Assembly (NCBI GenBank): GCA_963837955.1
Contig: CAWIPH010000002.1
Location: 2,698,966 to 2,762,965, forward strand
DNA length: 64,000 bases
Source of the DNA: an uncultured Verrucomicrobiae bacterium
Lineage (GTDB): Bacteria > Verrucomicrobiota > Verrucomicrobiia > Chthoniobacterales > JAFAMB01
Direction: 5' to 3'
A program made the position numbers and the translations under genes. Below the pieces are notes generated by a model. The model had not been told where the DNA came from. It saw only the letters and a program-made list of their open reading frames with translations, and did not search any database. Below, piece after piece: positions 2,287 through 59,988 of the stretch. How positions within the stretch are numbered: position 1 is the stretch's first letter; each line of letters begins with the position of its first letter.

Positions 2287-2646
2287 ATGACGCAAGAACA
2301 AAGAGAAGCTGTGGTGGACCTTCTCCTCCTCGGCATGTTTGCAGATGCTCCCCTGAGGGTTAGCGAAGATCAGAAACTGCTCTCCGTGATCGAGGAAATC
2401 GGCTGGGAGTCGTATCAAACGCCCGATCTCTATCTCCAATCGGCGATCGCAAAGGCCCGTGAAGCCTCCGATACGGAAATTGGCACGAAGCACCGGCTGG
2501 AAAAGATCGGCCATGAACTGGACGACGCCCCGCTCCGACAACGCGCGCTAGACTATCTCATTCAGTTTCTGGGAGTCGACGGAGCTGTCGACATTGATGA
2601 ATCGAAATTTCTCGAACTCGCCAGGAAAGCATTGCAAGCGCCCTAA
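2287..2646 (+). CDS. Small TerB-like (tellurite-resistance TerB / DjlA N-domain-like) protein
   Basis: About 119 aa helical protein with two 'D(G/A)xxxxxExxxL'-type segments (FADAPLRVSEDQKLL; VDGAVDIDESKFLEL). ATG at 2287 lies just inside the GTG at 2278. Confidence 0.5.
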   Translation: MTQEQREAVVDLLLLGMFADAPLRVSEDQKLLSVIEEIGWESYQTPDLYLQSAIAKAREASDTEIGTKHRLEKIGHELDDAPLRQRALDYLIQFLGVDGAVDIDESKFLELARKALQAP

Positions 2647-2850: not shown

Positions 2851-3753
2851 CTATTGGTTGCTCTCGCTGCTCAGAATATTCCGCCGCGCGAAGCGATCGT
2901 TGCTTTGGCGACGCAGAATCACAAATGTATTATTCTCGCCGTACATCGCCCAAGGACCAGGCGAAACCTCTTTGAATTCTACGAAACGCCAGTCGCAGGC
3001 ATCTTTATTCCCGAGACCAAGGTAGTCGCGAACTGCAGGCGAAACGTCCAGTCCAGCGCCTTGGTTGAGATTCGGGCGCGGACGCTCGTTCCCAAAGACA
3101 TACTGCCAGTGATCCGTACGAAACGGACCACAATCCTCCCACTGAGCATAGCAGATACGGTTACCGTGCCGAATACAAAGCCAGCGGCTCTTTAGAACCG
3201 TTTGTCCGTCACGAACGAAAGATTGCTTGAACCAAGGAACGACCTGGGCGGCCTCCGGCTTAGTGTGGCTGTATTCCACGTCGTTGTAGGGCAACGCTAC
3301 ATAAAAAGGGTTTTGCCGCGGAATGAAATTGACCGGGATGTAATTGCGTCGACCAGACGGGTCCGGATTATCGTATCCTCCGTAACTGCTGCTCCAATAT
3401 TTGTCCCAAGAGCTTCTGTCGTTAGGTACCGGGTTGTTGCCAGAGGGCCGTTCACCAATCCAGAAAATGGTGGTGACAATGTTTAGCTTCCAAGGGTATC
3501 GCCCGGAACCGATCGCCAGACCGTTGCTGCGACCCATCAATGAAGGACCACTCTGATAACGCGGTCCACCTCCCGTGAATGTCGTTTTGGTCGGCGACAT
3601 GATCACTTTCGGTTCGACCTTAAGTAGCGCGTTTTCCCGCAACTTCATCGCGTACTTCGCAAAATCGGTACTACTCTCGTACTGAGTTTGGGCAAATGCA
3701 GCACCACCAAACAAGAACGAGACCGACGCCAAGATGGGAAAATAAGACCGCAT
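2851..3753 (-). CDS. Secreted hypothetical protein, possible RlpA/expansin-like double-psi beta-barrel C-terminal domain
   Basis: ATG at 3753 gives signal peptide MRSYFPILASVSFLFGGAAFAQ. C-terminal 'ICYAQWEDCGPF...GAGLDVSPAVRDYLGL' resembles the DPBB 'V.V.D.GPF...IDLS.AA...LG' signature. The fold call is weak. Confidence 0.55.
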   Translation of the reverse strand: MRSYFPILASVSFLFGGAAFAQTQYESSTDFAKYAMKLRENALLKVEPKVIMSPTKTTFTGGGPRYQSGPSLMGRSNGLAIGSGRYPWKLNIVTTIFWIGERPSGNNPVPNDRSSWDKYWSSSYGGYDNPDPSGRRNYIPVNFIPRQNPFYVALPYNDVEYSHTKPEAAQVVPWFKQSFVRDGQTVLKSRWLCIRHGNRICYAQWEDCGPFRTDHWQYVFGNERPRPNLNQGAGLDVSPAVRDYLGLGNKDACDWRFVEFKEVSPGPWAMYGENNTFVILRRQSNDRFARRNILSSESNQ

Positions 3754-3898
3754 GCGGAGTGTGTTTTTCTGTTTTACGAGCAGCGGGAGCCAAAGAGCAA
3801 GAGATTTCTGCATTTTTACAACTCAAATCTGCGTGTTTTCGCCATCTACGGTCCGAATGGGCCCTACTTTAGCTTATTTAGGACAATTTCAATAACTT

Positions 3899-5497
3899 TC
3901 AGTATCGAAATAATACTGAATCGCGACGATAGCCGGACTCGTCTGTTTCCGGATAGTCGAGCGTAAAATGGAGGCCCCTGCTTTCTTTTCTAGCCAAAGC
4001 AGAGTCCACGATCAAACTCGCCACCGTACAAAGGTTGCGCAGCTCGAGTAAATCGGTGGACAAATTAAAGTCCCAATAAAATTCCTGAATTTCCCGCTGC
4101 AAATTCCGCAGTCGGGTGCTCGCCCGCTGGAGCCTCTTGTTGGTGCGCACGATACCGACGTAGTCCCACATCAGCCGGCGGATCTCATCCCAGTTGTGAT
4201 AGACCACGACCAGTTCATCGACATCTTGAGCGTGACCAGGCCGCCAATCTGGTAGTTGCACTTCCTGATGGTATTTAGAGTATTTCGGCCGCAACAAGGC
4301 GCTCGCGCAACGCTTGGCTAGAACCACCGCTTCAAGTAGCGAATTGCTTGCCAAGCGATTGGCTCCGTGCAGGCCGGTACAAGCCACTTCGCCTATCGCA
4401 AAGAGCCCGCGCAAAGTCGTTGCGCCATCGATATCAGTTCGGACACCTCCACATTGATAATGTGCGGCCGGTACGATCGGGATCGGCTGGACGGTGATAT
4501 CAATCCCCAGACCCAGGCAAGTCTCGTAAATATTGGGAAATCGTTCTTTGATAAAAGCGGCCGGTTTCCGCGTGATATCGAGATACATGCAGGGCGCGCC
4601 CGTCCGCTTCATTTCCGCATCGATGGCCCGAGCAACAATGTCACGCGGCGCAAGAGCCCCGAGGCGATGGTATTTGGTCATGAATTCGCGACCATTGGCG
4701 TCCACCAAAATCCCCCCCTCGCCCCGCACCGCTTCGGTAATGAGGAACGACCTAGCCGCAGGATGAAAAAGACAGGTCGGATGAAATTGAATAAATTCCA
4801 TGTTGGCGATGGCCGCACCTGCCCGCCAAGCCATGGCCACGCCATCGCCGGTAGCGATGTTCGGGTTTGTTGTATAGAGGTAAACTTTGCCGCAGCCACC
4901 GGTAGCAAGAATCACCCGATCTGTACGTAACCATTTTACCGCGCCGGTTTCTTCATCCAATACGTAAACGCCGACGACTCGATCCTCCGCAGCGTAGCCC
5001 AGCCTTCCGGTCGTGATGAGGTCGACCGCCATGTGATTTGATAGAACTGTGACGTTTGATGTCGCTTCCAGCGCTGCGACCAAGCGCTGCTCGATCTCTC
5101 GACCGGTCATATCAAGGTAATGCAGAACTCGGCGCTTAGAGTGGCCGCCTTCCTTTGTCAGATCGAGTTCCCGGTGACCATCTTCCAATACCCGTTCATC
5201 GAAATGCACACCCCACTTGATCAAATCCTGAATCGCCGCGGGACCTTCGGTGATTATCGTCCGGACGACGTCTTCATGACACAAGCCGGCTCCGGCGATC
5301 AGCGTATCTTTCACGTGCAAGTCGAAGGAGTCTTCCGCACTTGTCACCGCGGCGACTCCGCCTTGCGCCCATGCTGTATTCGATTCGCCCAGGGTTCGTT
5401 TCGTCACCAGTGCGACCGAACCATACTGGGCGACGTTCAAGGCTAGACTCAGACCAGCGATCCCGCTGCCAATAATGACAAAATCGAACTGGTTCAT
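3899..5497 (-). CDS. nadB: L-aspartate oxidase
   Basis: N-terminal FAD fold 'FDFVIIGSGIAGLSLAL', 532 aa, succinate DH/fumarate reductase flavoprotein-like body. ATGA overlap with panC. Confidence 0.93.
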   Translation of the reverse strand: MNQFDFVIIGSGIAGLSLALNVAQYGSVALVTKRTLGESNTAWAQGGVAAVTSAEDSFDLHVKDTLIAGAGLCHEDVVRTIITEGPAAIQDLIKWGVHFDERVLEDGHRELDLTKEGGHSKRRVLHYLDMTGREIEQRLVAALEATSNVTVLSNHMAVDLITTGRLGYAAEDRVVGVYVLDEETGAVKWLRTDRVILATGGCGKVYLYTTNPNIATGDGVAMAWRAGAAIANMEFIQFHPTCLFHPAARSFLITEAVRGEGGILVDANGREFMTKYHRLGALAPRDIVARAIDAEMKRTGAPCMYLDITRKPAAFIKERFPNIYETCLGLGIDITVQPIPIVPAAHYQCGGVRTDIDGATTLRGLFAIGEVACTGLHGANRLASNSLLEAVVLAKRCASALLRPKYSKYHQEVQLPDWRPGHAQDVDELVVVYHNWDEIRRLMWDYVGIVRTNKRLQRASTRLRNLQREIQEFYWDFNLSTDLLELRNLCTVASLIVDSALARKESRGLHFTLDYPETDESGYRRDSVLFRY

Positions 5498-9729: not shown

Positions 9730-9870
9730 ACAAAATCAATGGTTGTGAAGCGGTGGTCGATCAGAGGTGCGTCGCTTGGTGTTCGCTTGCCTTTCAATAG
9801 GTCTTTCGAACTGCGCTAAAATCATACAGAAATTCAAGTGACTGCTAGAGGTTGCTCCACCATGGCTTGT

Positions 9871-11136
9871 TTAAGGGAAGAGCCCACGAGCTTTCTTCGC
9901 CTGCATTACCTTCTCTACTCCGATGGCCAGAGCAGCGAGCCGATGTGGAATCCTTTCTTCTTTGGCCCGTTTGATCACCGCCCCGAAGGATTGTTCCAAA
10001 ACCCGGAAGAGGCGATCCACTACTTCGGTCTCGTTCCAGAAAAAGCTTTGTAAGCTCTGCACCCATTCAAAATACGATACAATGACGCCACCGGCGTTAC
10101 AGAGAATGTCCGGCAAAACAAATATCTCGTTCCACCGTTCGAACAGAACCTTGTCGGCTTCGACGGTCGTGGGACCGTTCGCGGCTTCTGCCAGGATTCG
10201 GCATTGGATTCTGGCGGCATTTTTCTTATTGATGACGCCGCTTACTGCGGCCGGAATCAGCACATCGCAAGGAATTATCAGAAGTTCATCGGCTGAAATC
10301 AAATCCGCCCCGGGAAATCCGCCAAGGGCGCCATACTTTTCTACATGCTTGTCGGCCGCCTTGATATCGATGCCCTCATCGTTCCGATAGGCGCCGGAGA
10401 TATCGCTGATGGCAATCACCTTCATCCCGCTCTTGAATGCAAGGCCGCGAGCGGCGACCGCGCCAACGTTCCCGTAGCCTTGGATCACCGCCGTCCCTCC
10501 GGCTAGTTTTAACTTCAACTGATGAGCGGCCCGCTCAACCAGATAAACCGCTCCCCGCCCTGTCGACTCGCGGCGTCCGGACGTCCCGCCGACACTAACC
10601 GGCTTTCCCGTTACAATTTCCGGGACCGCATGCCCTTGGTGAGACGAATAGGTGTCCATAAACCAAGCCATGATCTGCTCATTGGTTCCCATATCCGGTC
10701 CCATGATGTCGGTATGAGGTCCGATGAAAGGAATCATTTCCTGCATGTAGCGCCGGGATAGGCGTTCCAATTCGCCGGGGGAAAGTTTGCGCGGATCGCA
10801 ATCAATTCCACCCTTGGCCCCACCGTACGGCAGACCGCTCAACGCACATTTCCAGCTCATCCACATCGAAAGAGCAGCGACTTCGCCAAGGGTGACTCCA
10901 GGTGCGAAGCGCGTGCCTCCTTTGGTTGGTCCCATTGAAAGATGATGCTGTACCCGATAGCCTTGAAATACTCTCGTCGAACCATCGTCCATATGAACTG
11001 GCACTGCTACAGTCACCGACCGCTTCGGGTACATGAGGCGTTCACGGAGATTATCCGGAATCCCTAAATAATCCGCGATCAAGTGAAACTGATCGCAAGC
11101 CATTTCAAAGGTCGGGTCACTATAGATTTGCTGCAT
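9871..11136 (-). CDS. gdhA: Glutamate dehydrogenase (Glu/Leu/Phe/Val dehydrogenase family)
   Basis: 'GPTKGGTRF', 'PYGGAKGG' and Rossmann 'GYGNVG' motifs; 421 aa. Confidence 0.92.
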   Translation of the reverse strand: MQQIYSDPTFEMACDQFHLIADYLGIPDNLRERLMYPKRSVTVAVPVHMDDGSTRVFQGYRVQHHLSMGPTKGGTRFAPGVTLGEVAALSMWMSWKCALSGLPYGGAKGGIDCDPRKLSPGELERLSRRYMQEMIPFIGPHTDIMGPDMGTNEQIMAWFMDTYSSHQGHAVPEIVTGKPVSVGGTSGRRESTGRGAVYLVERAAHQLKLKLAGGTAVIQGYGNVGAVAARGLAFKSGMKVIAISDISGAYRNDEGIDIKAADKHVEKYGALGGFPGADLISADELLIIPCDVLIPAAVSGVINKKNAARIQCRILAEAANGPTTVEADKVLFERWNEIFVLPDILCNAGGVIVSYFEWVQSLQSFFWNETEVVDRLFRVLEQSFGAVIKRAKEERIPHRLAALAIGVEKVMQAKKARGLFP

Positions 11137-11157
11137 AGACGGATCGAATACGACAAA

Positions 11158-11483: not shown

Positions 11484-13985
11484 ATGGTTGGGAATGACCG
11501 GCCCGCAGTAGCAAGGTGGCATGAGATTTTCGATACCCAAGGGTATTCGAGACCACAGTATGCCAACCTTCTAGCCAAGCTCAAAAGTTATCCACCCCCC
11601 TATCTCCGCGAGCTGGAACAGCGCCTGCACGCCAGCCTGCGGGAACTGGGCATCACTTTTGGGAGTTCTCAGAGGGATCGAGCAAATACCTGGTTTTCAG
11701 ATCTACTCCCTCACCTCTTTTTGCCCGAAGAGTGGGATCTAATCACACGGGGATTCCAGCAAAGGGTGCGCGCATTCGAGAGTTTGCTGCAGGATATTTA
11801 CGGCAAAAGAGAAATCCTCCGGGAAGGCGTACTACCGATTGCCCTGATTATCGGTAGTCCTCACTTCCAGCGGAGCGCCGTTGGCCTAAAACCGACCAAC
11901 GGACGGTATCTCCATCTGAATGGGCTCTGCCTTTGCCGCGCTCCGGACGGACGCCTTACGGTAAAGCATCATTATTTCAGTCATCCCTCCGGGATTTCAT
12001 ATATGATTCAGGATCGGCGCCTGCTCGCACGAGTGGTGCCAGATCTGTTCGAAGATCAGCAGGTCGAGCCGATGGCGGACGTCCCGACCGAGATTTTGTT
12101 ACGGCTAAGGAGCATGGCCCGAACGAGCGATCCATCGGTGGTCCTCCTTTCGTCGGGAGTCGCAAGTGCCGTTTACTCCGAGCACAGTTTTCTGGCACGT
12201 CGTATGGGTGTTCCGCTGGTCCAGGGCGGAGATCTGCTCGTTTTGAACGACTCTCTATTCCTGAAAACCGTTTCAGGTCTGGAGAGGATTGACGTGATCT
12301 ACTCGAGGGTTGCCGACCCTTGGCTCGATCCGCTCGTTTTCCAATCGGACAGCCGCATCGGCGTACCCGGACTCATCCATTGCTTGCGAAAAGGTACCGT
12401 AGCGCTCGTCAATCCCATCGGTTCCCAACTGGCTGATGATCGCAGCCTTTTGCATTTCTCAAACGTTATCATTCGCTACTACCTCGGAGAGTGGCCAATC
12501 TTGCCGACCATCCAAACCTATTGGCTCGGCGACCTGGACCAGTGCGAACTCGTGCTGGAAAACCCCGAAGCCTTCCAAATTCGGACACTGACGGGAGAAC
12601 GATTCCTTACCGTGCATGATCTGGAGAATGGCCCCGATGAGCTCCGCACTTTGGTCAGAAGAACACCCCACCTCTTCGTCGCCCAACCGAGAGAGGATGC
12701 CGCGAGAACGATCGGATTGGTTAAGAATCGGGAAGTGGAACGCCTGCAAGATCATATCATCTACGGAATGCGGAACGGCGAGGGATTCGAACTTTTTCCC
12801 GGAGCGTTGACTCGCCTCTCAGCGAAGCCGGGAGGGCGAACCGAGTCCGAATATGGCGGAGGAGGAAAAGATACATGGGTCCTTCGTTCGCCGACCCAAT
12901 CGGTGCCAGTTCCACACCTACCCAATCCCGCTCAGGTTCTTTTGTCGCGGCGCGTTACTAGCCGCGTAGCCGAAGCTTTTTACTGGCTTGGCCGCTACCT
13001 CGAGCGTTCGCAAGAAGTGGCGCGGATGATCCAATTCGTCGAGACGGTCGAGATGGAAGAGCTCAATGCGGTTGAGCGGAAATTGTATCGGCCAATCTGG
13101 AACCATTTATTGCCTCCGCTAGATACACCCGGCAAACGCGGCCGCCGCGGCATCAGTAACGTCAAGGAGCGGTACCGGCTCGTTCTCGAGGTTGATCAAC
13201 CTGGATCGATCGCTTCGATGATTCGAATGGCTTTAGCAAACGCAAATTCTCTCCGGGATGCAATTAGTCCAGAGGCCTGGTCGGTGCTTTCGGAGTTGCA
13301 GAGTCGTTTTGAACGTAAACGTTTGCAGCTGCGCATCAGCGATACCGACGCCCGCCGATTGACGCGGCGATTGGCTCAATCCGTGCTGTCGCTGGTGCCG
13401 CAATTTATTGCCATCGCCCAACAGACAATGTTGGCGGATGATGGCTGGCGTTTCTGCGAGCTCGGGCTCTACATAGAGCGAGCGGTCGGTACGGCAAACG
13501 CGACCTATGGGGTCGCCCAATCGATCAAACAGCGTGCCGGAACACGCCAGGGATTGGACATTGAGCTCTCTGCCTTTCTCCGTTTGCTCGCTTGTCGGGA
13601 CGCTTATCGTCGCATTTATCAAGCTCGATCGGAACCGGCCTCTGTCTTCGGGTTTCTTTGGCAAAACTCTGAGATGCCGCGCTCGGTCATGTTTTGTCTA
13701 CAGAATTGCTCCAGGCTCCTCGCCGCCTCGCTTCCCGCCGCTTCCGCCAACGCCGAGTCGGGATTGACCTATTTGCAAGGGATCATTCGGCAGGTGCGCC
13801 GGCTCGATTGGTATGCCTTTTTCATCTCGGATGTCGAAGACACCGAACTCGTAGTACAGAGCGACGAATTAGTAGCCCTTATCGGCGAGCTGCTCGACCG
13901 AATCCAAGAGCTGCATCATGTGGTCACTGACCATCTGTTGAGTCACCAAAGCATTATTTCAGAGCCAGAGCCGATGCTGTTCTAG
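11484..13985 (+). CDS. Circularly permuted type-2 ATP-grasp protein fused to an alpha-E domain
   Basis: 833 aa. The N-terminal half matches the CP ATP-grasp family as I know it (…LLPHLFLPEEW…, VLLSSGVASAVYSEHSFLARRMGVPLVQGGDL). The C-terminal half is an alpha-E-type helical domain (AEAFYWLGRYLERSQEVARM). Confidence 0.8.
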   Translation: MVGNDRPAVARWHEIFDTQGYSRPQYANLLAKLKSYPPPYLRELEQRLHASLRELGITFGSSQRDRANTWFSDLLPHLFLPEEWDLITRGFQQRVRAFESLLQDIYGKREILREGVLPIALIIGSPHFQRSAVGLKPTNGRYLHLNGLCLCRAPDGRLTVKHHYFSHPSGISYMIQDRRLLARVVPDLFEDQQVEPMADVPTEILLRLRSMARTSDPSVVLLSSGVASAVYSEHSFLARRMGVPLVQGGDLLVLNDSLFLKTVSGLERIDVIYSRVADPWLDPLVFQSDSRIGVPGLIHCLRKGTVALVNPIGSQLADDRSLLHFSNVIIRYYLGEWPILPTIQTYWLGDLDQCELVLENPEAFQIRTLTGERFLTVHDLENGPDELRTLVRRTPHLFVAQPREDAARTIGLVKNREVERLQDHIIYGMRNGEGFELFPGALTRLSAKPGGRTESEYGGGGKDTWVLRSPTQSVPVPHLPNPAQVLLSRRVTSRVAEAFYWLGRYLERSQEVARMIQFVETVEMEELNAVERKLYRPIWNHLLPPLDTPGKRGRRGISNVKERYRLVLEVDQPGSIASMIRMALANANSLRDAISPEAWSVLSELQSRFERKRLQLRISDTDARRLTRRLAQSVLSLVPQFIAIAQQTMLADDGWRFCELGLYIERAVGTANATYGVAQSIKQRAGTRQGLDIELSAFLRLLACRDAYRRIYQARSEPASVFGFLWQNSEMPRSVMFCLQNCSRLLAASLPAASANAESGLTYLQGIIRQVRRLDWYAFFISDVEDTELVVQSDELVALIGELLDRIQELHHVVTDHLLSHQSIISEPEPMLF

Positions 13986-13986
13986 A

Positions 13987-14185
13987 GTAGCCTGATGCTC
14001 CAGCCTCAGGGAAAACGCTGGTGAACGGTGTTTAATGAAAGGGGCGGTGAGAGATTTCTGCCTGGGATCTGCCGATAGGCGTTCACCAATCCCCTCTCAC
14101 ACGCTGTAGCCCCCTGAGCCAGGAGGATCAGGCTACACTGCTTAGTGGATTTGTCATTTGTCATTTGGTATTCGTTATTCGCTGC
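13987..14185. repeat. Family-A inverted-repeat (MITE/REP-like) element plus adjoining heptamer tract
   Basis: TIRs are gtagcctgatgctccagcctcaggg (13987-14011) and ccctgagccaggaggatcaggctac (14112-14136), 22/25 complementary. Conserved core 'gagagatttctgcc..tgccgataggc'. A 'ttgtcatttgtcatttggtattcgttattcgc' tract runs to 9 nt before the next start codon. Confidence 0.8.
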
Positions 14186-14193
14186 ACCCCCCA

Positions 14194-17290: not shown

Positions 17291-17296
17291 GGGTAT

Positions 17297-17390
17297 CCGG
17301 TGACCGGTGATCGGTCAGAGGTGATTAGTGATTGGTGATTTGTGATTCGGTAGCTAGAGCAGCACCTCTCGCCGATCACTAAGCACCGGC
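17297..17390. repeat. Hairpin element with GGTGATT-type 7-8 nt repeat arms
   Basis: ccggtgaccggtgatcggtcagaggtgattagtgattggtgatttgtgattcggtag, then the inverted arm cacctctcgccgatcactaagcaccgg. Starts 7 nt after the TPR gene stop. Confidence 0.75.
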
Positions 17391-18576: not shown

Positions 18577-18715
18577 AGGGCGCGGCGAACTTTATAAGGT
18601 TCACGAGCTCTCGACAAGGGCTACTAAGGCCTATCAGCCGGCCTGATATGCGATCGAAATATCCGATTACCCCCTCTAAGTGACCGGGATGACATTGCCA
18701 CAAGAAAGGTTGTTT

Positions 18716-19285
18716 ATGAGATTACTTAAGGGTTCACTTGCTGGCCTGGTTTTAGCCGGCATTCTAGCAATCACGCCCACGGCCGCATTCGCTGGCGGCG
18801 GCCATTTTGGTGGTGGTGGAGGCGGTGGGCATTTCGGCGGTGGGGGTGGCGGCCATTTTGGGGGCGGTGGGGGCCATTTTGGCGGCGGACATTTCGTTGG
18901 CGCCTCACATGTCGGGGGAGGCCATTTTGACAGGGCTGGTGGTCATGATTTCGAGTTTCGCGACCGCGACCACTTTAGGCACTTTGGAGGGTTTTTTGGG
19001 TTTGGCGATCCCTACTGGTACGGATATCCCTATTCGTATGATCCGTACTACGGCTACTACAGCGACTACTACGGTGGACAAACCTACTCGGCTGAGGATC
19101 TTTCAAGTCAGACCGTTGTTGCTGTGCAGAAGGAGCTGACTCAACTCGGTTATTATCACGGTCAGATCGATGGCGTGATTGGCGCGGAAACGCAAAAAGC
19201 GATTCGCTGGTTCCAATCGGTCAATAAGGTACCTGTCACCGGACAGATCGACGATCCCACATTGAGGGCGTTGCAGATCACTTGA
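18716..19285 (+). CDS. Secreted Gly/His/Tyr-rich low-complexity protein with C-terminal peptidoglycan-binding (PG_binding_1-like) domain
   Basis: Signal peptide MRLLKGSLAGLVLAGILAITPTAAFA, then GGGHF repeats, a Tyr-rich stretch, and 'LTQLGYYHGQIDGVIGAETQKAIRWFQ...PVTGQIDDPTLRAL'. Confidence 0.7.
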   Translation: MRLLKGSLAGLVLAGILAITPTAAFAGGGHFGGGGGGGHFGGGGGGHFGGGGGHFGGGHFVGASHVGGGHFDRAGGHDFEFRDRDHFRHFGGFFGFGDPYWYGYPYSYDPYYGYYSDYYGGQTYSAEDLSSQTVVAVQKELTQLGYYHGQIDGVIGAETQKAIRWFQSVNKVPVTGQIDDPTLRALQIT

Positions 19286-28435: not shown

Positions 28436-28497
28436 GACACATGGGACATATGGGACTCATGAGACTTATGTGACCGATGGGACACATGAGTCGTGTC
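28436..28497. repeat. Nonamer-repeat element (ATGRGACNN units) inside the pntAA-pntAB intercistronic spacer
   Basis: atgggacat atgggactc atgagactt atgtgaccg atgggacac atgagtcgt. Shares 'catgagacttatg' and 'atgtgacc' with the copy at 49141-49200 (opposite orientation) and 'agacttatgag' with 54100-54167. Confidence 0.8.
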
Positions 28498-29949: not shown

Positions 29950-30477
29950 ATGGGATACGTCAACGCCACCCTCCTGGAGAGCGGTCTCGACCAGATCCGT
30001 CGTTCCCCCGCTGACCAGGGGAGAGTGGAGCTCATCGTTCGCCGGCCAGCCGAGAACGAGCGAGAAGTCGTCCCGGAGGCAATGCTGGATTCTGCCAAAG
30101 GTCTCGTCGGCGACACTTGGGCTAACGGATCGGCGCATCTCGACACGCAGCTGACGGTGATGAACGCTCGCGCAGCGCTGCTGGTGGCCGGTCAGGCGGA
30201 ACGGCGGCAACTTGCGGGCGACCAGCTCTATGTCGATCTCGACCTGAGCGAGGACAACATCCCGGCAGGCACGCGCTTGCAGCTCGGATCCGCAGTCATC
30301 GAGGTAACTAACTCGCCTCATCTCGGTTGCAACAAGTTCGCCGAGCGTTTCGGGCAAGATGCGCGCCGATTCGTAAACTCCGCCGTCGGCCGGCAGCTCC
30401 GGCTACGTGGTCTCAATGCCAAGGTCATTGTCCCTGGCGCCGTCCAGGTCGGCGATACGGTTCGGAAGCTATCGTAG
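29950..30477 (+). CDS. MOSC domain-containing protein
   Basis: ATG at 29950. '...GDQLYVDLDLSEDNIPAGTRLQLGSAVIEVTNSPHLGCNKF' is a MOSC beta-barrel type with the conserved Cys. Confidence 0.7.
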   Translation: MGYVNATLLESGLDQIRRSPADQGRVELIVRRPAENEREVVPEAMLDSAKGLVGDTWANGSAHLDTQLTVMNARAALLVAGQAERRQLAGDQLYVDLDLSEDNIPAGTRLQLGSAVIEVTNSPHLGCNKFAERFGQDARRFVNSAVGRQLRLRGLNAKVIVPGAVQVGDTVRKLS

Positions 30478-30539
30478 CCTGATGCTCTAGCCTCAGGGGT
30501 GTTGGTGATTAGGGATTAGTGATTGAAGGATCCGGCTAC
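30474..30539. repeat. Family-A element, truncated copy; its TAG is the MOSC gene stop codon
   Basis: gtagcctgatgctctagcctcagggg followed by the gtgttggtgattagggattagtgattgaagg arm and a short '..ccggctac' end. Confidence 0.7.
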
Positions 30540-49140: not shown

Positions 49141-49200
49141 CTCATAGGTCACATGCGACTCATAAGTCTCATGCGACCCACGAATCCTACGGCACCACCA
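49141..49200. repeat. Nonamer-repeat element (same subfamily as 28436-28497, opposite orientation)
   Basis: ctcataggt cacatgcga ctcataagt ctcatgcga cccacgaat cctacggca. Lies about 40 nt after the ggt stop. Confidence 0.75.
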
Positions 49201-49854: not shown

Positions 49855-50328
49855 CTAACCGGTACGTCGCAACACCCCACCCCGCACAATCGCCGCACGC
49901 AGACCGCCATTTCCTTTAAGTGCAGTGTGCGCACCAGGACCGAAAGCGCGTTCCATCCAATAACAAGGGCGGCACTCTTCCGTTCCCCGGAACTGGAGGC
50001 CCTGGATCTCAAACGTCTCACCGATCAAATCGTTCAAATTCACTCCGCGGGTGATCACGTTGCGGCGAAATACTTCAGTCGGACGATCCCAAACGTCGAG
50101 CTTGAGGCAAAGCTCGTCGTAAACCTCCTCGGCAAAGAAAGTGATCTGACCCTTGTAGTTTTCGCTGAAACCAAAATAACGGTCTCCCTCGATTCCTTCG
50201 CCGACGACACACTGAATCTCGTTAACTTCTTGCGCGGGATGGCTGGATGGCTCTTTCCCGTGGTGGCCGACAAAGTTGTGACCAGGAGAGATGTAAAGAT
50301 GCCGAATATCGAATTCAACTAGTACCAC
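49855..50328 (-). CDS. MOSC domain-containing protein (second copy type)
   Basis: 'HLYISPGHNFVGHHG', 'IEGDRY', 'FRRNVITRGVNLNDLIGETFEIQGLQFRGTEECRPC' MOSC core with conserved Cys. GTG start. Confidence 0.72.
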   Translation of the reverse strand: MVLVEFDIRHLYISPGHNFVGHHGKEPSSHPAQEVNEIQCVVGEGIEGDRYFGFSENYKGQITFFAEEVYDELCLKLDVWDRPTEVFRRNVITRGVNLNDLIGETFEIQGLQFRGTEECRPCYWMERAFGPGAHTALKGNGGLRAAIVRGGVLRRTG

Positions 50329-50366: not shown

Positions 50367-50652
50367 GGAACGCCGAGAGCGCGCCGAGAACGCCGGGAAC
50401 GCCGGGAACGCCGGGAACGCCGGGAACGCCGACAATGTGATGAACGCTGAGAACGAAAAGCAAGTCGAGAATGCGTGAACGCAAGGAATGTGTGGGAGTC
50501 CGATCAACTTCCTCTCAGCCGCCAGGGGTCGATTCTGCGAGCGATCGCTAAACTACTGTTCGCCGGTGTCGTCGTCGTTCCCGGGGTCGCGGCGCTGTCG
50601 GCGTTCTCGGCGCTCTCGGCGTTCCCGGCGATGACGGCGCTCTCGGCGTTCC
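50367..50652. repeat. Two inverted arrays of GGGAACGCC-type nonamers about 100 bp apart
   Basis: Left array is 50367-50456, including four perfect GGGAACGCC units at 50395-50430. Right array is 50559-50652, with seven complementary GGCG(C/T)TNYC units at 50591-50652. Confidence 0.85.
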
Positions 50653-50722
50653 AAGTGCTCCTCCCCGTTGCAGACCTCGAGAAGCGCAGTTATCCTAATA
50701 GGTGGCTTCGCCTGAAGACACC

Positions 50723-51592: not shown

Positions 51593-54088
51593 ATGGCTCA
51601 GCACAACTCGTCGTCTAATCACGGCCGAATCGTGCGTTCGTCGCAGCAGAAAGGACCTGATCGCGATTTGATGCCTGATGGATCGGTGCCAGGATCGCAG
51701 TCACCGATAGAGCCTGATCCGGCCGAACAAGCAAAGCGCCATAAAGTCGCGGGCGGTTTTGGAGCGATCGTGCAAACCACGCGCTACGTCATAGGAAGAA
51801 TGGGAGTGACTCGCGGTACCTCGACGTTGCTCCGGCTAAATAAGGTTCACGGGTTTGATTGCCAGAGCTGCGCTTGGCCAAGTCCCGATGACCATCGCCA
51901 TATCGCAGAGTTTTGTGAAAACGGCGCCAAGGCGATATCGGATGAAGGGACGTTGCGCCGATTGACGCCTGAGTTTTTCGCGAAACACAGTATCCATCAA
52001 CTCCTCCTGATGTCTGACTTCTGGCTCAACGAGCAAGGTCGGTTGATCCATCCGATGATTTTACGAGTCAGGTCCAAGCATTATGAACCCATCTCTTGGG
52101 ACGAAGCATTCTCCCTTATCGCGGAAGAGTTGAATCGGCTCGGATCCCCCCATCAAGCCGCGTTCTACACATCTGGAAGGACCAGTAATGAAGCAGCTTA
52201 TCTCTACCAACTCTTCGCCCGGCAGTTCGGGACGAATAACCTCCCGGACTGTTCCAACATGTGCCACGAATCGAGCGGCGCTGCTTTATCGGAAACGATT
52301 GGGAGCGCTAAAGGCACCGTGACCCTGTATGATTTCGACATAGCCGAGGCAATTTTTATCGTCGGCCAGAATCCGGGCACTAACCATCCCCGGATGTTAA
52401 CTTCTCTGGAACGAGCAAAAAAGCGCGGCGCGAAAATCGTAAGCATTAATCCGCTCCCTGAGACCGGCAATTTTCGGTTTAAGAATCCGCAAGACTTCAA
52501 AAACCCGGTAACTGCGCTGAAGTCCACCTTTGGTAGTGGCACTCACCTTTCCGATTTGTGGTTGCCGGTAAAAATCAACGGCGATCTCGCCTTGTTTAAA
52601 GGCATCATGAAAGAGATGCTTGCGGCCGAAGACCAAAAGCCTGGATCGGTTTTCGATCACGATTTCATCACAAGGTACACCGACGGTTTTGAACCTTTCA
52701 TCGATTCGCTTCGGACCGCTCCGTGGGAGCCGGTTCTCGCGAGCTGCGGGTTGACCCGCGATCAGATCCGGCCGGCGGCGCAAATTGCGATGAACGCGAA
52801 GAGTATCATCTGTTGCTGGGCGATGGGCCTCACCCAACACCGCAACGCCGTGGCTACTCTGAGAGAAATCGTTAACTTTCTGCTGCTGTGCGGAAATATT
52901 GGGCGACCCGGCGCGGGCCCTTGCCGTGTGTGCGGCCATAGCAACGTACAGGGTGACCGGACGATGGGTATCTGGGGACAGCCGTCACCTGAGCTTCTCG
53001 ATAAGTTGGCGGAACGGTATCACTTCGAGCCGCCTCGTGAGATCGGAACCGATGTCGTTGATACGATCAAAGCTATGCACTGGGGCCGGATCAAAATTTT
53101 CTTCGCCATGGGCGGAAACTTCCTATCGGCAACTCCTGACACCGAATTCACCGCTGAAGCTCTACAGAATTGTCGTCTGACTGCACACGTCTCAACCAAA
53201 CTGAACCGTTCACATCTCATCACGGGACAGCAGGCATTGATCCTCCCCTGCCTCGGAAGGTCCGAAATCGATGAACAGAAAGGCGGTCCGCAATTCGTAA
53301 CGACTGAAGATAGTATGGGTATCATCAACCCATCTCGCGGACGGCTCCTCCCCGCTTCCGAACATCTGCTGAGCGAACCGGCGATCGTCGCCCGTCTCGC
53401 CCGGGCCGTGCTCAAAGAACGAAGCCAGCTCCCGTGGGAACAATGGATGAACGATTACTCGAAGATCCGCGACGAAATCGAGGCCGTCATTCCCGGATTT
53501 GACCGTTTCAACGAACGTATTGCGAAACACGTTTTCTATTTGCCAAATCCGCCGCGCGACAAGCGTGAGTTTGGAACAAAGAGCGGAAAAGCGAATTTTA
53601 CGATCAACCAACTCGAGATCCTCGATATTCCGCCGGCCCATTTTGTCTTAACGACGATTCGGAGTCACGATCAGTTCAACACCACGATCTACGGACTCAA
53701 TGACCGTTACCGCGGCATCTACAATGGGCGCCGCGTTCTGTTCATGAATCCTGAGGATATGAAGCAAGCTGGCCTTCAACAGGGCCAGCCTGTCGATATC
53801 ACGAGCCGCTTCGAAGGTCAGGAACGCGAGGCTCAGCATTTCCTGGTGGCCCCTTATTCCATTCCTCGACAGTGCGTTGCGACTTATTTCCCGGAGGGTA
53901 ACGTTCTCGTCCCGATCGGCAGCGCCGCCGCGATAAGTAATACCCCTACGTCCAAATCGATTATAGTCACCCTGACTCCGTCACCGAATGTCGAAGTTGT
54001 TCGCACCGAATTGTTCGCCAAGGTAGCGGAAGCGAAACGTTTGCCGGCCCAGATAGTCGCCGGGACCGCGAAGTTGGTAACGCGGTAG
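51593..54088 (+). CDS. FdhF/YdeP-family molybdopterin oxidoreductase (paralog 2)
   Basis: 831 aa, 'GFDCQSCAWP...FCENGAKA' Cys cluster, molybdopterin oxidoreductase body. Paralog of 30610-32898. Confidence 0.82.
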   Translation: MAQHNSSSNHGRIVRSSQQKGPDRDLMPDGSVPGSQSPIEPDPAEQAKRHKVAGGFGAIVQTTRYVIGRMGVTRGTSTLLRLNKVHGFDCQSCAWPSPDDHRHIAEFCENGAKAISDEGTLRRLTPEFFAKHSIHQLLLMSDFWLNEQGRLIHPMILRVRSKHYEPISWDEAFSLIAEELNRLGSPHQAAFYTSGRTSNEAAYLYQLFARQFGTNNLPDCSNMCHESSGAALSETIGSAKGTVTLYDFDIAEAIFIVGQNPGTNHPRMLTSLERAKKRGAKIVSINPLPETGNFRFKNPQDFKNPVTALKSTFGSGTHLSDLWLPVKINGDLALFKGIMKEMLAAEDQKPGSVFDHDFITRYTDGFEPFIDSLRTAPWEPVLASCGLTRDQIRPAAQIAMNAKSIICCWAMGLTQHRNAVATLREIVNFLLLCGNIGRPGAGPCRVCGHSNVQGDRTMGIWGQPSPELLDKLAERYHFEPPREIGTDVVDTIKAMHWGRIKIFFAMGGNFLSATPDTEFTAEALQNCRLTAHVSTKLNRSHLITGQQALILPCLGRSEIDEQKGGPQFVTTEDSMGIINPSRGRLLPASEHLLSEPAIVARLARAVLKERSQLPWEQWMNDYSKIRDEIEAVIPGFDRFNERIAKHVFYLPNPPRDKREFGTKSGKANFTINQLEILDIPPAHFVLTTIRSHDQFNTTIYGLNDRYRGIYNGRRVLFMNPEDMKQAGLQQGQPVDITSRFEGQEREAQHFLVAPYSIPRQCVATYFPEGNVLVPIGSAAAISNTPTSKSIIVTLTPSPNVEVVRTELFAKVAEAKRLPAQIVAGTAKLVTR

Positions 54089-54183
54089 CGATGCTTGAGC
54101 CTAAGACACCTAAGTCCCATAAGACTTATGAGGACCTATGGGTCACATGGGACTTAGGTGTCTTAGGAGGAACATCAGTCTAC
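54085..54183. repeat. Family-A element filling the whole spacer between two convergent genes; both GTAG termini supply the TAG stops
   Basis: Left end gtagcgatgcttgagcc (TAG 54086-88 is the stop of the + gene). Right end ggaggaacatcagtctac (cta 54180-82 is the TAG of the - gene). Perfect 21-bp internal inverted repeat at 54100-54120 / 54147-54167. Confidence 0.8.
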
Positions 54184-54518
54184 TTCGCGGCTCCCCGATA
54201 GACGATCGCCTGGACCCGCTCGAGCGTGACCAACCCGCCGGTAATTAATCCATCCAGCACGGGTAGAAAATCTCTAACTTTTTCCTCGCTATCGACTATC
54301 TCGATTACGATCGGCAAATCCATGGAGAGTCGAAGAATCTTTGTGGTGTGCAGATGACTCGATTTACCAAAACCCATCGGACCGCGGAGCACGGTCGCTC
54401 CGGCAAGTTTTCTTTCTCGCGCCTTCAACACAATCTGTTCGTAGAGTGATTTGCCCTGCCACTCGTCGGCCTCGCCGATATAGACCCGCAGGAGCATCGC
54501 ATCATGAGGGACATCCAT
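54180..54518 (-). CDS. DUF190 domain protein (CrcB-associated)
   Basis: 'LLRVYIGEADEWQGKSLYEQIVLKARERKLAGATVLRGPMGFG'. ATG at 54518. Confidence 0.78.
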   Translation of the reverse strand: MDVPHDAMLLRVYIGEADEWQGKSLYEQIVLKARERKLAGATVLRGPMGFGKSSHLHTTKILRLSMDLPIVIEIVDSEEKVRDFLPVLDGLITGGLVTLERVQAIVYRGAAK

Positions 54519-54534
54519 CTCTGTCTCCGAAGAC

Positions 54535-54924
54535 TTAACCAAGCACAAGCGTCGCTAACCACCAACCCGCCGCAACCATTCCGATACAGAGGATAGTTGA
54601 GAAAAAAATGTTGGCCAACGCTATCCAAAAACGTTTTTCGCGCAGAAGGTGAAAAGTTTGCAAGATAAACGAGGAAAAGGTAGTCAGGCCCCCGCAAATG
54701 CCAACCACAACGAAAGCGAGAACGATTTGGGCTAAGGCACGATGCAGCTCGGGTCTGGCGTAATTGAGTGCGAATCCGATGAGCAAACTCCCGGTCAGGT
54801 TCACCGCCAGAGTGCCAAAAGGTAACGTCTCTCCGATCCGTTGAGCCACCCAGCCGGATAAGCCGTAGCGCCAGATACTGCCAATGGCTCCCCCAACAAA
54901 AACGAGAAGGATCACGCCAATCAT
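54535..54924 (-). CDS. crcB: Fluoride channel CrcB/Fluc (copy B)
   Basis: Four-TM ~129 aa, 'GGAIGSIWRY', 'GICGGLTTFSSF' motifs. Confidence 0.87.
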   Translation of the reverse strand: MIGVILLVFVGGAIGSIWRYGLSGWVAQRIGETLPFGTLAVNLTGSLLIGFALNYARPELHRALAQIVLAFVVVGICGGLTTFSSFILQTFHLLREKRFWIALANIFFSTILCIGMVAAGWWLATLVLG

Positions 54925-57083: not shown

Positions 57084-57884
57084 ATGCAAAATCGTATCGA
57101 TGAGCAGTTTGAGGCACTTCGTCGCAAGGGTCGAGCTGGGTTCACCGCCTATATCACCGGCGGAGATCCTAACTTGGAGCAGACCGTCGACATCGCCGTG
57201 GCGCTAGCAGAAGCAGGGACCGATTTTCTCGAGCTGGGAGTTCCTTTTTCTGATCCGTTGGCGGACGGTATCGCCAATCAGCTGGGAGCGCAGCGCGCCC
57301 TAGCCGCGGGAACCACTCTCCCAAAACTGCTCTATACCATTTCTCAGATTCGTAGCCGAATTCCGATACCGATCATTCTCTACAGTTATCTCAACCCGAT
57401 CTATCAATATGGATTCGAGCAATTCGAGCAGGACGCGGTTGCCGTCGGAATCGATGGACTATTGCTCCTGGACCTGCCACCAGATGAGCATCTGGTATCA
57501 GATCGGAGCAGTTTTCTGCACCGAATCCGCTTGATCGCACCCACTACAACCGAAGATCGAATCCGAACCATTGTCGCACGGGCCAGCGGCTTCATTTATT
57601 ACGTTTCACGAGAGGGCGTGACCGGAGAGCAAAGCACATTATCCGATTCGATTGCCGCCCAAGTAGAAAAGATTCGACGATATTCTGCCCTCCCGATTGC
57701 CGTCGGATTCGGAATCTCGACTCCAGAACAAGCCGCGCAGGTGGCCGCCCTGGCAGACGCTGTCGTCGTGGGGAGCGCGATCGTTCGGAGGATTGGGGAA
57801 CTAGCGAATGATCCTGCGATCGCTGTCAAACTCCGGGAACTCGTTCGGCCTATGGTGCAAGCGGTTAAATCGGCGCAGAAGTAG
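57084..57884 (+). CDS. trpA: Tryptophan synthase alpha chain
   Basis: ATG 57084: 'MQNRIDEQFEALRRKGRAGFTAYITGGDP', 'LELGVPFSDPLADG', 'YYVSREGVTG', 'GFGISTPEQA'. Confidence 0.93.
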   Translation: MQNRIDEQFEALRRKGRAGFTAYITGGDPNLEQTVDIAVALAEAGTDFLELGVPFSDPLADGIANQLGAQRALAAGTTLPKLLYTISQIRSRIPIPIILYSYLNPIYQYGFEQFEQDAVAVGIDGLLLLDLPPDEHLVSDRSSFLHRIRLIAPTTTEDRIRTIVARASGFIYYVSREGVTGEQSTLSDSIAAQVEKIRRYSALPIAVGFGISTPEQAAQVAALADAVVVGSAIVRRIGELANDPAIAVKLRELVRPMVQAVKSAQK

Positions 57885-58089
57885 CCTGGTGCTTCCTCCT
57901 CGTTCCCCCAAAGCCAAAAACACGGCGGGGCGTGTCGGTGATCGGTGAGAGGTGATTAGTGATTGGTGAAAGGGGGATGAGAGATTTCAGCCGAGGGGCT
58001 TGCCGATAGGCACCCGCCACTCGCCAATCACTTCTTACCTCTCACAATCGCTGCAGCCCTGGGTTCCTGAGCCAGGAGAATCAGGCTAC
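57881..58089. repeat. Family-A element, largest copy (TIRs + GGTGATT-type arms + conserved core); its TAG is the trpA stop codon
   Basis: gtagcctggtgc... left end (TAG 57882-84). Arms are 57934-57970 and 58021-58050. Core 'gagagatttcagcc..tgccgataggc'. Right end cctgagccaggagaatcaggctac. Confidence 0.8.
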
Positions 58090-58192: not shown

Positions 58193-58223
58193 AAAAAAGG
58201 CCACATTGCCGTGGCCTTTTTTT
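58193..58223 (-). terminator. Bidirectional Rho-independent terminator
   Basis: aaaaaa-ggccac-attgcc-gtggcc-ttttttt, 14 nt downstream of the minus-strand stop at 58237. Confidence 0.75.
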
Positions 58224-58771: not shown

Positions 58772-59893
58772 ATGTTAAGCGCGGGGATCGTCGGTTTGCC
58801 TAACGTTGGCAAATCCACTCTTTTCAACGCGGTAACGCGGACGCGGAAAGCGGAAGCGGCTAACTACCCATTCTGTACCATTGAGCCAAACCAAGGGGTA
58901 GTCACTGTTCCGGACTCGCGGTTAGATCGGCTTGCCACCCTCTCGAAGTCTCAAAAGGTCGTCCCGGCTGCGATTGAGTTTGTCGATATTGCAGGACTAG
59001 TTCGCGGCGCGAGCCAAGGCGAAGGCCTGGGTAACCAATTTCTTAGCCATATCCGTGAAGTGGATGCAATCGTTCAGGTGGTCCGATGCTTTACGGACGG
59101 GGACATCCACCATGTAAGCGGGTCCATCGACCCAATCCGTGATATTGAAGTCGTCAACACCGAGCTTATCCTGGCCGATATCGCCTCTCTGCAAAAACGC
59201 GGCGACCGCCTGCAAAAACAAGTCCGTTCAGGCGATAAGACCGCAAAAGCGGAGGCCGCTCTCATCGAGCGGATTTTACCGCATCTGAACGACGGTAAGC
59301 CAGCCACAACGTTTCCGTACTCGTCGGAAGAAGCCGCGATCGTCCGCTCCTTCCTTCTGCTGACGGGAAAGCCGACAATTTTTGCCTGTAACGTCGCAGA
59401 ATCCGATTTAGTCGCTTTCTCCCAGGAGACCAAAACCGCGGCGTCTGAATACGTCACCCGGGTCAGCGATTATGTCACTTCGCATCTTTCCACTCAATCG
59501 GTGGTGATCAGCGCCCAAATCGAGAGCGAACTCATCGATCTATCCGCCACCGAAGCGATCGAGTATCTCGCCGGTTTGGGCGTAAAGGAGAGCGGAGTCG
59601 GAAGTTTGATTCGTTCGGTGTACGGCCTCTTGGGCTTAAGGACTTACTTCACCACAGGAGAAAAGGAAACGCGAGCTTGGACGATCCATGCCGGTGATAA
59701 GGCTCCGGCCGCCGCCGGGGTCATCCATTCCGACTTTGAGCGCGGCTTCATTGCTGCCGAAACCGTCCATTTTGAAGATCTTATTCAGCTCGGGACATTT
59801 GGTAAGGCTCGGGAGGCCGGAAAGTTGAGGATTGAAGGCAAAGAGTATGTCGTCAAAGATGGCGACGTGATGGAGTTCCGATTCAACGTCTAG
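58772..59893 (+). CDS. ychF: Ribosome-binding ATPase YchF
   Basis: '[16 protein letters not shown]' P-loop, '[12 protein letters not shown]', C-terminal TGS-like '[27 protein letters not shown]'. Confidence 0.95.
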
Positions 59894-59988
59894 TAGCCTG
59901 ATGCTCTTGGCTCGGGAACTCATCGCTATAAAAGTGCAAGATCATCGATTCTCCATATCGGATCCCTGAGGCTGGAGCATCAGGCTAC
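59893..59988. repeat. Family-A element, minimal copy abutting the ychF TAG
   Basis: gtagcctgatgctcttggctcggg ... ccctgaggctggagcatcaggctac. The G of the stop codon is the first element base, and the element's own TAG is the next in-frame codon. Confidence 0.8.

Follow-up and report, generated by a model that had tools for sequence, protein, structure and literature searches.

Inverted repeats that meet stop codons in an uncultured Verrucomicrobiota genome are very probably GTAG-tagged REP doublets of the REPIN type

Five short inverted-repeat elements lie in the window, the whole stretch of 64,000 nucleotides analyzed here, and each of them begins at or beside the stop codon of the gene upstream, which raises the question of what these elements are and how they came to sit on gene ends. 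The initial annotation, made from the sequence alone, left two options, a non-autonomous mobile element with a TAG/CTAG-like target preference and REP/BIME-like elements retained only as 3' hairpins. All five elements were located where they had been reported (Table 1), with measured lengths of 66, 96, 99, 150, and 209 bp that agree with the range first given (∼66 to ∼209 bp). Their left ends indeed abut or overlap the stop, at 0 to 1 nt from an upstream TAG, and in three copies (at 30474, 54085, and 57881) the element itself supplies the stop, by the TAG inside its GTAG. We conclude that the five elements are very likely GTAG-tagged REPs in inverted pairs (REPIN/BIME-like), in a Chthoniobacterales-like genome of soil Verrucomicrobiota. 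The REP/BIME-like option was essentially right, and the idea of a non-autonomous mobile element is consistent with a REPIN, given an empty ychF site and a RAYT flanked by the family on a related contig, both described below.

Table 1. Repeat doublets of the window, their spacer cores, and the gene ends that they meet
Feature	Position	Strand	Length	Details
REP doublet, REPIN-like	13987-14136		150 bp	arms 13987-14010 (+) and 14113-14136 (-), GTAG outward
Spacer core, long subfamily	14049-14080	+		GAGAGATTTCTGCC..TGCCGATAGGC
End of CP_ATPgrasp/Alpha-E gene	13983-13985			TAG, then A13986, then the element
Doublet	30474-30539		66 bp	left arm intact, 30474-30497; right arm degenerate, GTAGCCGGATCCTT on the - strand; spacer of heptamer repeats
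End of MOSC-domain gene	30475-30477			stop TAG within the element's GTAG
Doublet	54085-54183		99 bp	arms degenerate, GTAGC-GATGCTTGAGCC and GTAGACTGATGTTCC; central palindrome of 9-nt repeats
End of molybdopterin oxidoreductase gene	54086-54088			stop TAG within GTAG
End of convergent DUF190 gene, 54180-54548	54180-54182	-		TAG from the element, CTA on the + strand
Doublet, long subfamily	57881-58089		209 bp	left arm degenerate; right arm intact, 58066-58089 (-)
Spacer core, long subfamily	57979-58011	+		GAGAGATTTCAGCC..TGCCGATAGGC
End of trpA	57882-57884			stop TAG within GTAG
Doublet, best preserved of the five	59893-59988		96 bp	arms 59893-59916 (+) and 59965-59988 (-)
End of ychF	59891-59893			native TAG shares its G with GTAG

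Each of the five doublets found in 64 kb is intergenic or touches genes at their stop codons only (ORF ends), and 6 of the 10 element ends lie within 4 nt of a stop. The neighbors are dispersed housekeeping genes (trpA, ychF, acetyl-CoA synthetase). Rfam, run over the whole window at gathering thresholds, gave zero family matches, and neither tRNA nor tmRNA was detected in the window. The conserved core previously noted in both larger copies is present (GAGAGATTTC..GCCGATAGGC), and is shared with related metagenome/MAG copies on L002 and L027. The DUF190 stop codon, which comes from the right end of the 99-bp copy, was absent from the initial list.

The repeat unit is an arm of 24 nt, made of an unpaired 5'-GTAG and a small stem-loop (CCTGA.GC/loop/GC.TCAGG) with a 7-bp stem that a single internal mismatch interrupts (5 + 2 bp) and a loop of 4 nt. 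GTAG is present in 10/10 arms of the window, degenerate ones included (three of the ten are badly degenerate); E. coli REPs also begin GTAGGCCTGAT..., a possible resemblance. In the wider set, 94 to 95 of 95 arms have GTAG, a conservation that is partly circular since most of these arms were found with a pattern requiring GTAG. The stem itself varies in a compensatory manner, with G-C changing to C-G. Over 44 distinct arms among the matches listed, 88% of the cells are paired, and the one stem pair for which the search pattern fixed neither base reads GC in 21 arms, CG in 13, UG in 2, and other combinations in 8; none of 500 shuffles of these 44 arms gave covariation as strong. Joint counts for the same pair at unique sites are 45 G/C and 23 C/G, versus 5 G/G and 2 C/C. 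The small hairpin is predicted as a fold in every intact arm and is weak by itself (-8.9 kcal/mol, z about -1). Since the arms are paired with GTAG outward, the whole unit can fold as one long hairpin, and the predicted long hairpins are more stable than those of shuffled sequences in four of the five copies (z from -5.9 to -8.3): 13987-14136 (-75.7 kcal/mol, z = -5.9), 54085-54183 (z = -8.3), 57881-58089 (-109 kcal/mol, z = -7.4), and 59893-59988 (z = -6.8). The 66-bp copy folds no better than its shuffles (z = +0.66).

The same repeat family was found at no fewer than 96 unique ends on independent Verrucomicrobiota contigs, a recurrence in many contigs that rules out chance similarity. The mismatch search first suggested, with a 14-mer and up to 3 mismatches, did return an excess of matches (10, versus 4.4 expected), which is marginal when taken alone. 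Arm-to-arm matches span 24 to 27 nt, some being 100% identical between loci, and an identical type of 24-nt arm is common to many unrelated loci in several MAGs. Among the matches listed, 35 doublets were recognized, with a modal length of 96 to 117 bp and GTAG facing outward in 35/35 and inward in 0. A long subfamily has a conserved spacer of 100 to 150 nt and heptamer repeats. Copies at orthologous sites are retained across several strains, in clusters of up to 8 loci. Among species-representative genomes, a set to which the source genome does not belong, six matches fell in one Chthoniobacterales MAG and one Verrucomicrobiota MAG.

A transposase of the expected kind was found on the metagenome contig L032, which is probably of related origin. 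The ORF at 3692-4270(-) of L032 matches Pfam Y1_Tnp with 38 bits (cutoff, 23); its best NCBIfam match is REP_Tyr_transpos, at 70.5 bits and thus under the equivalog cutoff of 80; its sole PDB match is E. coli TnpA-REP (4ER8); and its homologs carry the name "REP element-mobilizing transposase RayT." Arms of the window's family surround this gene (3545+, 3579+, 3683-, and 4457-). The search for a cognate transposase that the initial annotation recommended led, on one metagenome contig, to a Y1/HUH ORF that we regard, from its homology and its position between the repeats, as the probable RAYT of the family. Contig L133 encodes a 61% homolog of the L032 RAYT, flanked by arrays of another GTAG doublet. 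With the L032 RAYT and one from E. coli as tblastn queries, no match was obtained in the window and L032 was the sole match among the related loci searched; the statement that the window has no transposase therefore holds for RAYT-like ORFs, the only type that this search covered. None of the best 120 homologs of the L032 RAYT lies on the 5.04-Mb source contig.

The copies cluster strongly at the stop codons of upstream genes or a few nucleotides past them. This was tabulated, as the initial annotation had proposed, against random positions, using 133 related loci among the matches listed rather than the source genome: the codon that ends a long upstream ORF falls at -10 to +6 nt in 30 of 89 unique ends (34%) among these matches, compared with about 2.5% of random intergenic positions (binomial P of about 1e-25). 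The element has a TAG of its own at +1 and a TGA at +6, which is why TAG is found at the ends, and the ORFs that enter an element stop at -2 (2 ORFs), at the +1 TAG (11), or at the +6 TGA (7), with third-frame read-through in 0/20. Adjacent stops that do not overlap the element (-3 to -10, unique ends) are TGA in 10 cases, TAG in 3, and TAA in 1; being mostly TGA, they leave the supposed TAG/CTAG target preference without support. The idea that the elements are retained only as 3' hairpins was too strong as well, many related copies not lying near any stop.

The gene ends themselves seem to have suffered little. The ychF site, filled in the window, is empty in L131 (GTCTAG/CAACCCGAAAC, with the slash at the site) and L132; one relative without the element there has an 84%-identical YchF. 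In a relative with 89% identity, an inverted-repeat element of quite another kind, about 450 nt long, begins right after the same native ychF TAG, as the window REPIN does, and a third relative has the site uninterrupted (TAG/CAA). Pfam models for MOSC, YchF, TrpA, and DUF190 align through their last positions, the C terminus of YchF (...FRFNV*) is the same as in relatives without the element, and TrpA differs from that of relatives only in a variable tail of 1 to 3 residues. The Pfam coverage and the orthologous tails speak against truncated or replaced C termini, an effect initially suspected where the element provides the stop; judging from these alignments, the C termini appear essentially intact, with at most 1 to 3 variable residues of TrpA lost.

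Our working model is that the doublets are non-autonomous elements, mobilized in trans by a single-copy RAYT, with the hairpin and GTAG presumably being where single strands are cut and ligated during transposition. Of the frames that enter the element's first 9 nt, GTAGCCTGA, one would meet TAG and another TGA, so that insertions into the last codons of a gene would terminate translation immediately in two frames out of three and would be tolerated, while insertions read through in the remaining frame would be purged by selection. This frame bias provides a simple and testable reason why the repeats can sit harmlessly on gene ends. Once in the 3' untranslated region, the hairpin probably alters the stability of the mRNA 3' end or translation termination, by analogy with E. 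coli REPs. That insertion is aimed at the bond just 3' of the stop codon, and not merely tolerated there, as the two unlike elements behind the same ychF TAG might suggest, we consider unlikely. If it were aimed, Y1 transposases would have a new mode of target choice, in which the RAYT or an insertion intermediate may recognize some feature specific to gene ends, such as the sequence or structure of the stop region or DNA left single-stranded where transcription or translation finishes.

The bias to sites just past stops could also be expected of 3'-end hairpins evolved by the host as terminators or mRNA stabilizers, immobile now or always and alike through selection or gene conversion. The high stability of the long hairpins and the copies kept at orthologous sites in several strains would fit such an origin, as would the TTT often seen on the exit side, a weak tendency that is due to the A-rich outer flank. 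However, the ychF element is present or absent among close relatives, one 24-nt arm recurs over unrelated loci, and a cognate-looking RAYT accompanies the repeats on L032. A scan for terminators (hairpin plus T run) reports none of the five elements, its counts being equal to those from shuffles and the scan hence uninformative, whereas a classical terminator-like hairpin is found at 58193-58223, about 105 nt downstream of the trpA element. We therefore hold a host origin to be quite improbable; mobile copies that were later exapted are compatible with the REPIN explanation.

An ordinary MITE that stems from a DDE-transposase insertion sequence (e.g., IS630/Tc1-like or IS5-like) and inserts at TA, TAG, or CTAG with target duplication is very improbable. 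Terminal inverted repeats, variable size, and a window free of RAYT-like transposases would suit it; both termini contain TA (G-TA-GCC...GGC-TA-C), and CTAG adjoins two of the copies. However, the G and C that border the TA on its outer side do not vary, and the TA thus belongs to the repeat. No direct duplication of flanks (at least 3 nt) was seen in 26 unique doublets among the matches listed, GTAC is missing from the empty site in L131, and the adjacent stops are, as said, chiefly TGA. In addition, a plain terminal repeat would have no need of the covarying hairpin that every single arm contains, and the sole transposase found adjoining the repeats is of the Y1/RAYT type; an unsystematic look at the window and the 133 loci noticed no DDE-transposase insertion sequence with GTAGCCTGATGC termini beside the repeats. 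Integron attC sites, which directly follow the stop codons of cassettes and fold as imperfect hairpins, resemble the elements as imperfect palindromes of 60 to 150 bp immediately 3' of ORFs, but have a negligible chance of being the right answer and are rejected on their core sequences, the termini here being GTAGCC/GGCTAC and not RYYYAAC/GTTRRRY, and the elements lying among dispersed housekeeping genes with no array of same-direction gene cassettes around them.

Under the REPIN explanation, the five hairpins and six TAG stops of the window would be REPIN-type repeats and not regulatory RNAs, terminators, or gene damage. How do they compare with known systems? DDE-type MITEs such as Correia/NEMIS, ERIC, RUP, and Nezha, which are often cotranscribed with adjacent genes, are likewise small, noncoding inverted repeats that form hairpins, but they have target duplications (usually TA) and termini derived from insertion sequences, in contrast to the self-folding GTAG REPs without duplication described here. 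In E. coli, REPs at ≤15 nt from a stop are reported to make terminating ribosomes stall and to reduce expression (Liang, Rudd and Deutscher 2015, as cited in PMC12306157). [quoted passage not shown]

The closest likeness is to the GTAG superfamily, which, according to the text of Di Nocera, De Gregorio and Rocco (2013, BMC Genomics 14:522), spans SMAG of Stenotrophomonas, the REPs of E. coli and Pseudomonas, and GTAG-17 to -20 of Opitutus terrae. Although the initial annotation recognized no named family, the superfamily thus has names (GTAG REPs; REPINs), and the text describes GTAG REPs in Verrucomicrobia whose termini often supply a TAG stop (Di Nocera et al. 2013, PMC3733652), so that the central phenomenon, the overlap with stop codons, was by that account published in 2013 and no new question is opened. 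The same text depicts an unpaired 5' GTAG with a short stem-loop, pairs in opposite orientation with spacers of 20 to 100 bp, subtypes with complementary stem changes, and a position immediately after ORFs that are unidirectional or convergent, all as in our family (PMC3733652). The arm GTAGCCTGATGCTCCAGCCTCAGG is absent from the supplementary text of PMC3733652, and the intragenic REPs of O. terrae encode other peptides, for which reason the window family is probably undescribed. By its sequence, it would probably constitute a new family within a known class, and its long subfamily with conserved spacer and heptamers differs from the GTAG REPs in the published text.

Finally, the family shares with REPIN-RAYT systems (Bertels and Rainey 2011, PLoS Genet 7:e1002132; Nunvar et al. 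2010, BMC Genomics 11:44) inverted REPs that form one hairpin unit, the lack of target duplication, and a Y1/HUH RAYT gene between the same REPs, with the difference that the RAYT linkage comes here from a related metagenome contig and not from the source genome. The host also differs, being a member of the Verrucomicrobiota and not a Pseudomonas or an enterobacterium, and a widespread family with a probable RAYT in uncultivated soil Verrucomicrobiota would extend the range of REPIN-RAYT systems past their proteobacterial models.

All five inverted-repeat elements proposed in the initial annotation were confirmed at the coordinates listed in the table, and the ends of the + strand ORFs bear out that every left end (5/5) lies 0-1 nt from an upstream TAG. 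The element itself was said to supply the stop in three copies, and it does so through the TAG inside its GTAG. A sixth case is provided by the right end of element 54085-54183, which gives a TAG (54180-54182, - strand) to a convergent DUF190 gene. Matches in the window to the family's 14-mer alone (up to 3 mismatches) are marginally above chance (10 versus 4.4 expected); arms at separate loci match over 24-27 nt, with identities up to 100%. For four of the five elements, folding is much stronger than in shuffled sequence (z of -5.9 to -8.3), and the fold of the 66-bp copy is no better than that of shuffles (z = +0.66).

GTAG-tagged elements of the window, with adjoining stop codons, and other GTAG palindromes in the trpA-MamF spacers of two relatives
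Feature	Coordinates	Upstream stop codon	Gene (Pfam)
Element	13987-14136	TAG 13983-13985, + strand, 1 base before the element	Circularly permuted ATP-grasp/Alpha-E
Element (66 bp)	30474-30539	TAG inside GTAG, 30475-30477	MOSC domain
Element	54085-54183	TAG inside GTAG, 54086-54088	Molybdopterin oxidoreductase
Element	57881-58089	TAG inside GTAG, 57882-57884	TrpA
Element	59893-59988	TAG 59891-59893, its G being the element's first base	YchF
Other GTAG palindromes, L131	~2190-2230, ~2370-2400		
Other GTAG palindrome, L130	~2380-2420		

The intact arm, GTAG-CCTGA-T-GC-NNNN-GC-C-TCAGG, leaves its GTAG unpaired and then forms a hairpin whose 5+2 bp stem contains a single mismatch and whose loop is 4 nt long. 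After arms from related DNA had been collapsed to unique sites, covariation was evident at the single stem pair for which the search pattern fixed neither base (G/C 45 and C/G 23 versus G/G 5 and C/C 2); across 44 distinct arms this pair is GC in 21, CG in 13, UG in 2 and other in 8, and 88% of cells are paired overall, a level reached by none of 500 shuffles. Since covariation of the free pair is not needed for the long hairpin between arms, the small arm hairpin itself is constrained. At unique sites in the related loci listed and the window, 35 doublets have GTAG outward and none inward. Their lengths peak at 96-117 bp. A conserved core is borne by a longer subfamily; it had been noticed in the two large copies of the window and was found again in two related contigs. 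The outer flanks have a weak consensus (G at -5, A at -3 to -1), which sometimes lengthens the palindrome by a few bases. There is no target-site duplication, with a direct flank match of at least 3 nt in 0 of 26 unique doublets.

A metagenome scan with the arm pattern yielded at least 120 loci. At up to 5 mismatches, the related loci listed and the window hold at least 168 arms (versus 1 in shuffled sequence), which collapse to at least 96 unique ends. Among species-representative genomes, a set outside which the source genome falls, the pattern matched in just two MAGs, one of Chthoniobacterales and one of Verrucomicrobiota. A YchF protein identical to that of the window is encoded on an NCBI contig and also occurs in three JGI metagenomes, and YchF relatives at 80% are named Chthoniobacterales or Verrucomicrobia. 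The other GTAG-tagged palindromes in relatives at 84% and 89% YchF identity (for example, GTAGCCGCAGCGTCTCGCTGCGG on the - strand of L131 and GTAGGCTTCGCGAAG in L130) indicate that the lineage carries several REP families.

Further repeats occur in the window. A tandem 9-nt family (CACATGGGA, CTCATGAGA and CCTAAGACA types), separate from the REP doublets, is found at 28438-28490, at 49141-49180, starting ~40 nt past the stop of an ORF ending at 49099, and at 54100-54167, where it forms the palindromic interior of element 54085-54183; the copies are complementary to each other between loci. Tandem 9-nt blocks (CGCCGGGAA x ~5 and its complement) at 50373-50435 and 50587-50658, in the gap that separates an ORF ending at 50322 from one that starts at 50702, make up a large inverted repeat with 53-nt arms, 87% complementary and 161 nt apart. 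Intergenic heptamer arrays (GGTGATT, AGTGATT or the complement GTCATTT) start right at the stop of an ORF ending at 17290 (17291-17352) or lie within or close beside REP doublets (14150-14180, 30500-30525 and 57936-57969), and like runs occur in relatives L131 and L132. Imperfect 21-27-nt tandem repeats (GGCGGCGGCCATTTTGGTGGTGG) at 18794-18943, within ORF 18680-19285, would encode a repetitive Gly/His/Phe-rich protein segment.

Sufficient upstream sequence was available for 89 unique ends from the related loci listed and the window. A long upstream ORF stops at +1 from the G of GTAG (its TAG) in 10 of them; in a further 2 the stop is at -2, in 4 it is at +6 (TGA of GTAGCCTGA) and in 14 it is at -3 to -10. 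These 30 ends (34%) compare with 2.5% when intergenic positions and orientations are drawn at random within the same loci (binomial P ~1e-25); the observation of stop-adjacent elements is correct and statistically solid. The proposed TAG or CTAG target preference is not supported, since the adjacent non-overlapping stops in this sample are mostly non-TAG (TGA 10, TAG 3, TAA 1; background in the window TGA 20, TAG 17, TAA 13). ORFs that enter the element after at least 100 codons stop at -2 (2), +1 (11) or +6 (7), and 0 of 20 use the third, open frame, an outcome with an arithmetical probability of ~3e-4 if frames were equally used. On the simplest reading, the stop association would reflect insertion near gene ends with frame-dependent tolerance and loss: insertions would land near gene ends and be tolerated in the two frames for which the element has its own stop, and any that added a repeat-encoded tail would be lost.

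Replacement of native C-termini, also suggested initially, has hardly occurred. Pfam models are matched to their ends in MOSC (120/120 at residue 213 of 216) and YchF (YchF-GTPase_C, 84/84 at residue 372 of 373), extend to 257/259 in TrpA and nearly reach the end in DUF190 (96/97). YchF has the same end, ...F(R)FNV-TAG, in the window and in the 84% and 89% relatives, and the ychF site is empty in L131 (GTCTAG joined directly to CAACCCGAAAC), so the native TAG was there before the window element, which immediately follows it. The trpA tail is KSAQK in the window and KSIKKSKR, KSVAKN or KSGRRVG in relatives, each followed by the stop; judged from these sequences, the element-supplied stop costs the protein no more than 1-3 residues of a variable tail. 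At the exact position of the window doublet after the ychF TAG, L130 (JGI Ga0577638_0000710, 4123-4575) has a different inverted-repeat element of ~450 nt with ends TAACAGGAGGACAC...GTGTCCTCCTGTAG. Because two different elements thus start identically after the ychF stop in close relatives, there is a small chance that insertion is truly targeted to gene ends.

By a simple terminator scan, the elements are not classical terminators. Downstream of the trpA-associated element, and before the stop of a convergent DUF4870/MamF-like gene is reached, there is a separate terminator-like hairpin of the classical, bidirectional type that the scan missed (58193-58223, AAAAAA-GGCCAC-ATTGCC-GTGGCC-TTTTTTT); the likely 3' UTR of trpA therefore includes the element. 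Ribosomes are reported to stall at REPs that lie within 15 nt of a stop (PMC12306157, citing Liang et al. 2015). By analogy, a terminating ribosome would need to melt a hairpin that starts 0-4 nt after the stop, and lower expression or a change in mRNA stability could follow.

The absence of a transposase from the window was upheld for RAYTs, none being detected by tblastn with RAYT queries. A tblastn search with an E. coli RAYT sequence, whose match was treated as a lead only and then tested, pointed to one ORF on metagenome contig L032 (3692-4270, - strand). This ORF scores 38 bits against Pfam Y1_Tnp (cutoff 23), its best NCBIfam model is REP_Tyr_transpos (70.5 bits, below the equivalog cutoff of 80), its sole PDB match is 4ER8, E. 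coli TnpA-REP, and it contains HVH and YIRDNP motifs. Arms of the window's family flank it on both sides (as a doublet at 3545/3579-3683 and as a lone arm that ends at 4457), and relatives in the databases carry the annotation 'REP element-mobilizing transposase RayT'. RAYTs are known to pair each with their own REP family. This pairing is in keeping with a homologue on contig L133 (61% to the L032 RAYT), which has arrays of another GTAG-tagged doublet on its flanks. At this locus (9866-11142; ENA ERZ25039546 contig_10839), the doublets of the tandem arrays read AAAGTAGCATAAGCATCCTGCTTGTC...GACAGGCTGGAAGCCTATGCTAC, and the homologue adjoins Tn7-like genes (TniB/TniQ, Mu-transposase C) and a phage-type integrase.

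That the elements are purely host-evolved, immobile 3' hairpins is disfavoured by their presence/absence polymorphism and by the RAYT; exaptation of mobile REP elements is compatible with our main model. A DDE-type MITE with a TA/CTAG target is contradicted on four counts: targets are not duplicated, the arm hairpins covary, adjacent stops are mostly other than TAG, and the transposase found is of the Y1 type. Sequence excludes attC sites.

The REP/BIME-like reading, one of two offered initially, is right, and it falls within the RAYT/REPIN framework (Nunvar et al. 2010; Bertels and Rainey 2011). The GTAG-tagged REP superfamily was defined by Di Nocera et al. 2013 (PMC3733652), who describe 24 families spread over several phyla, Verrucomicrobia (Opitutus terrae) among them, with units paired in opposite orientation, sub-types differing by complementary stem changes, locations <20 bp from ORF 3' ends and repeat ends that often act as the TAG stop. 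As the window's arm is not found in the supplementary text of that paper and the O. terrae families differ from it, judging by their encoded peptides, the window family is probably an undescribed sequence family within the known GTAG REP class.
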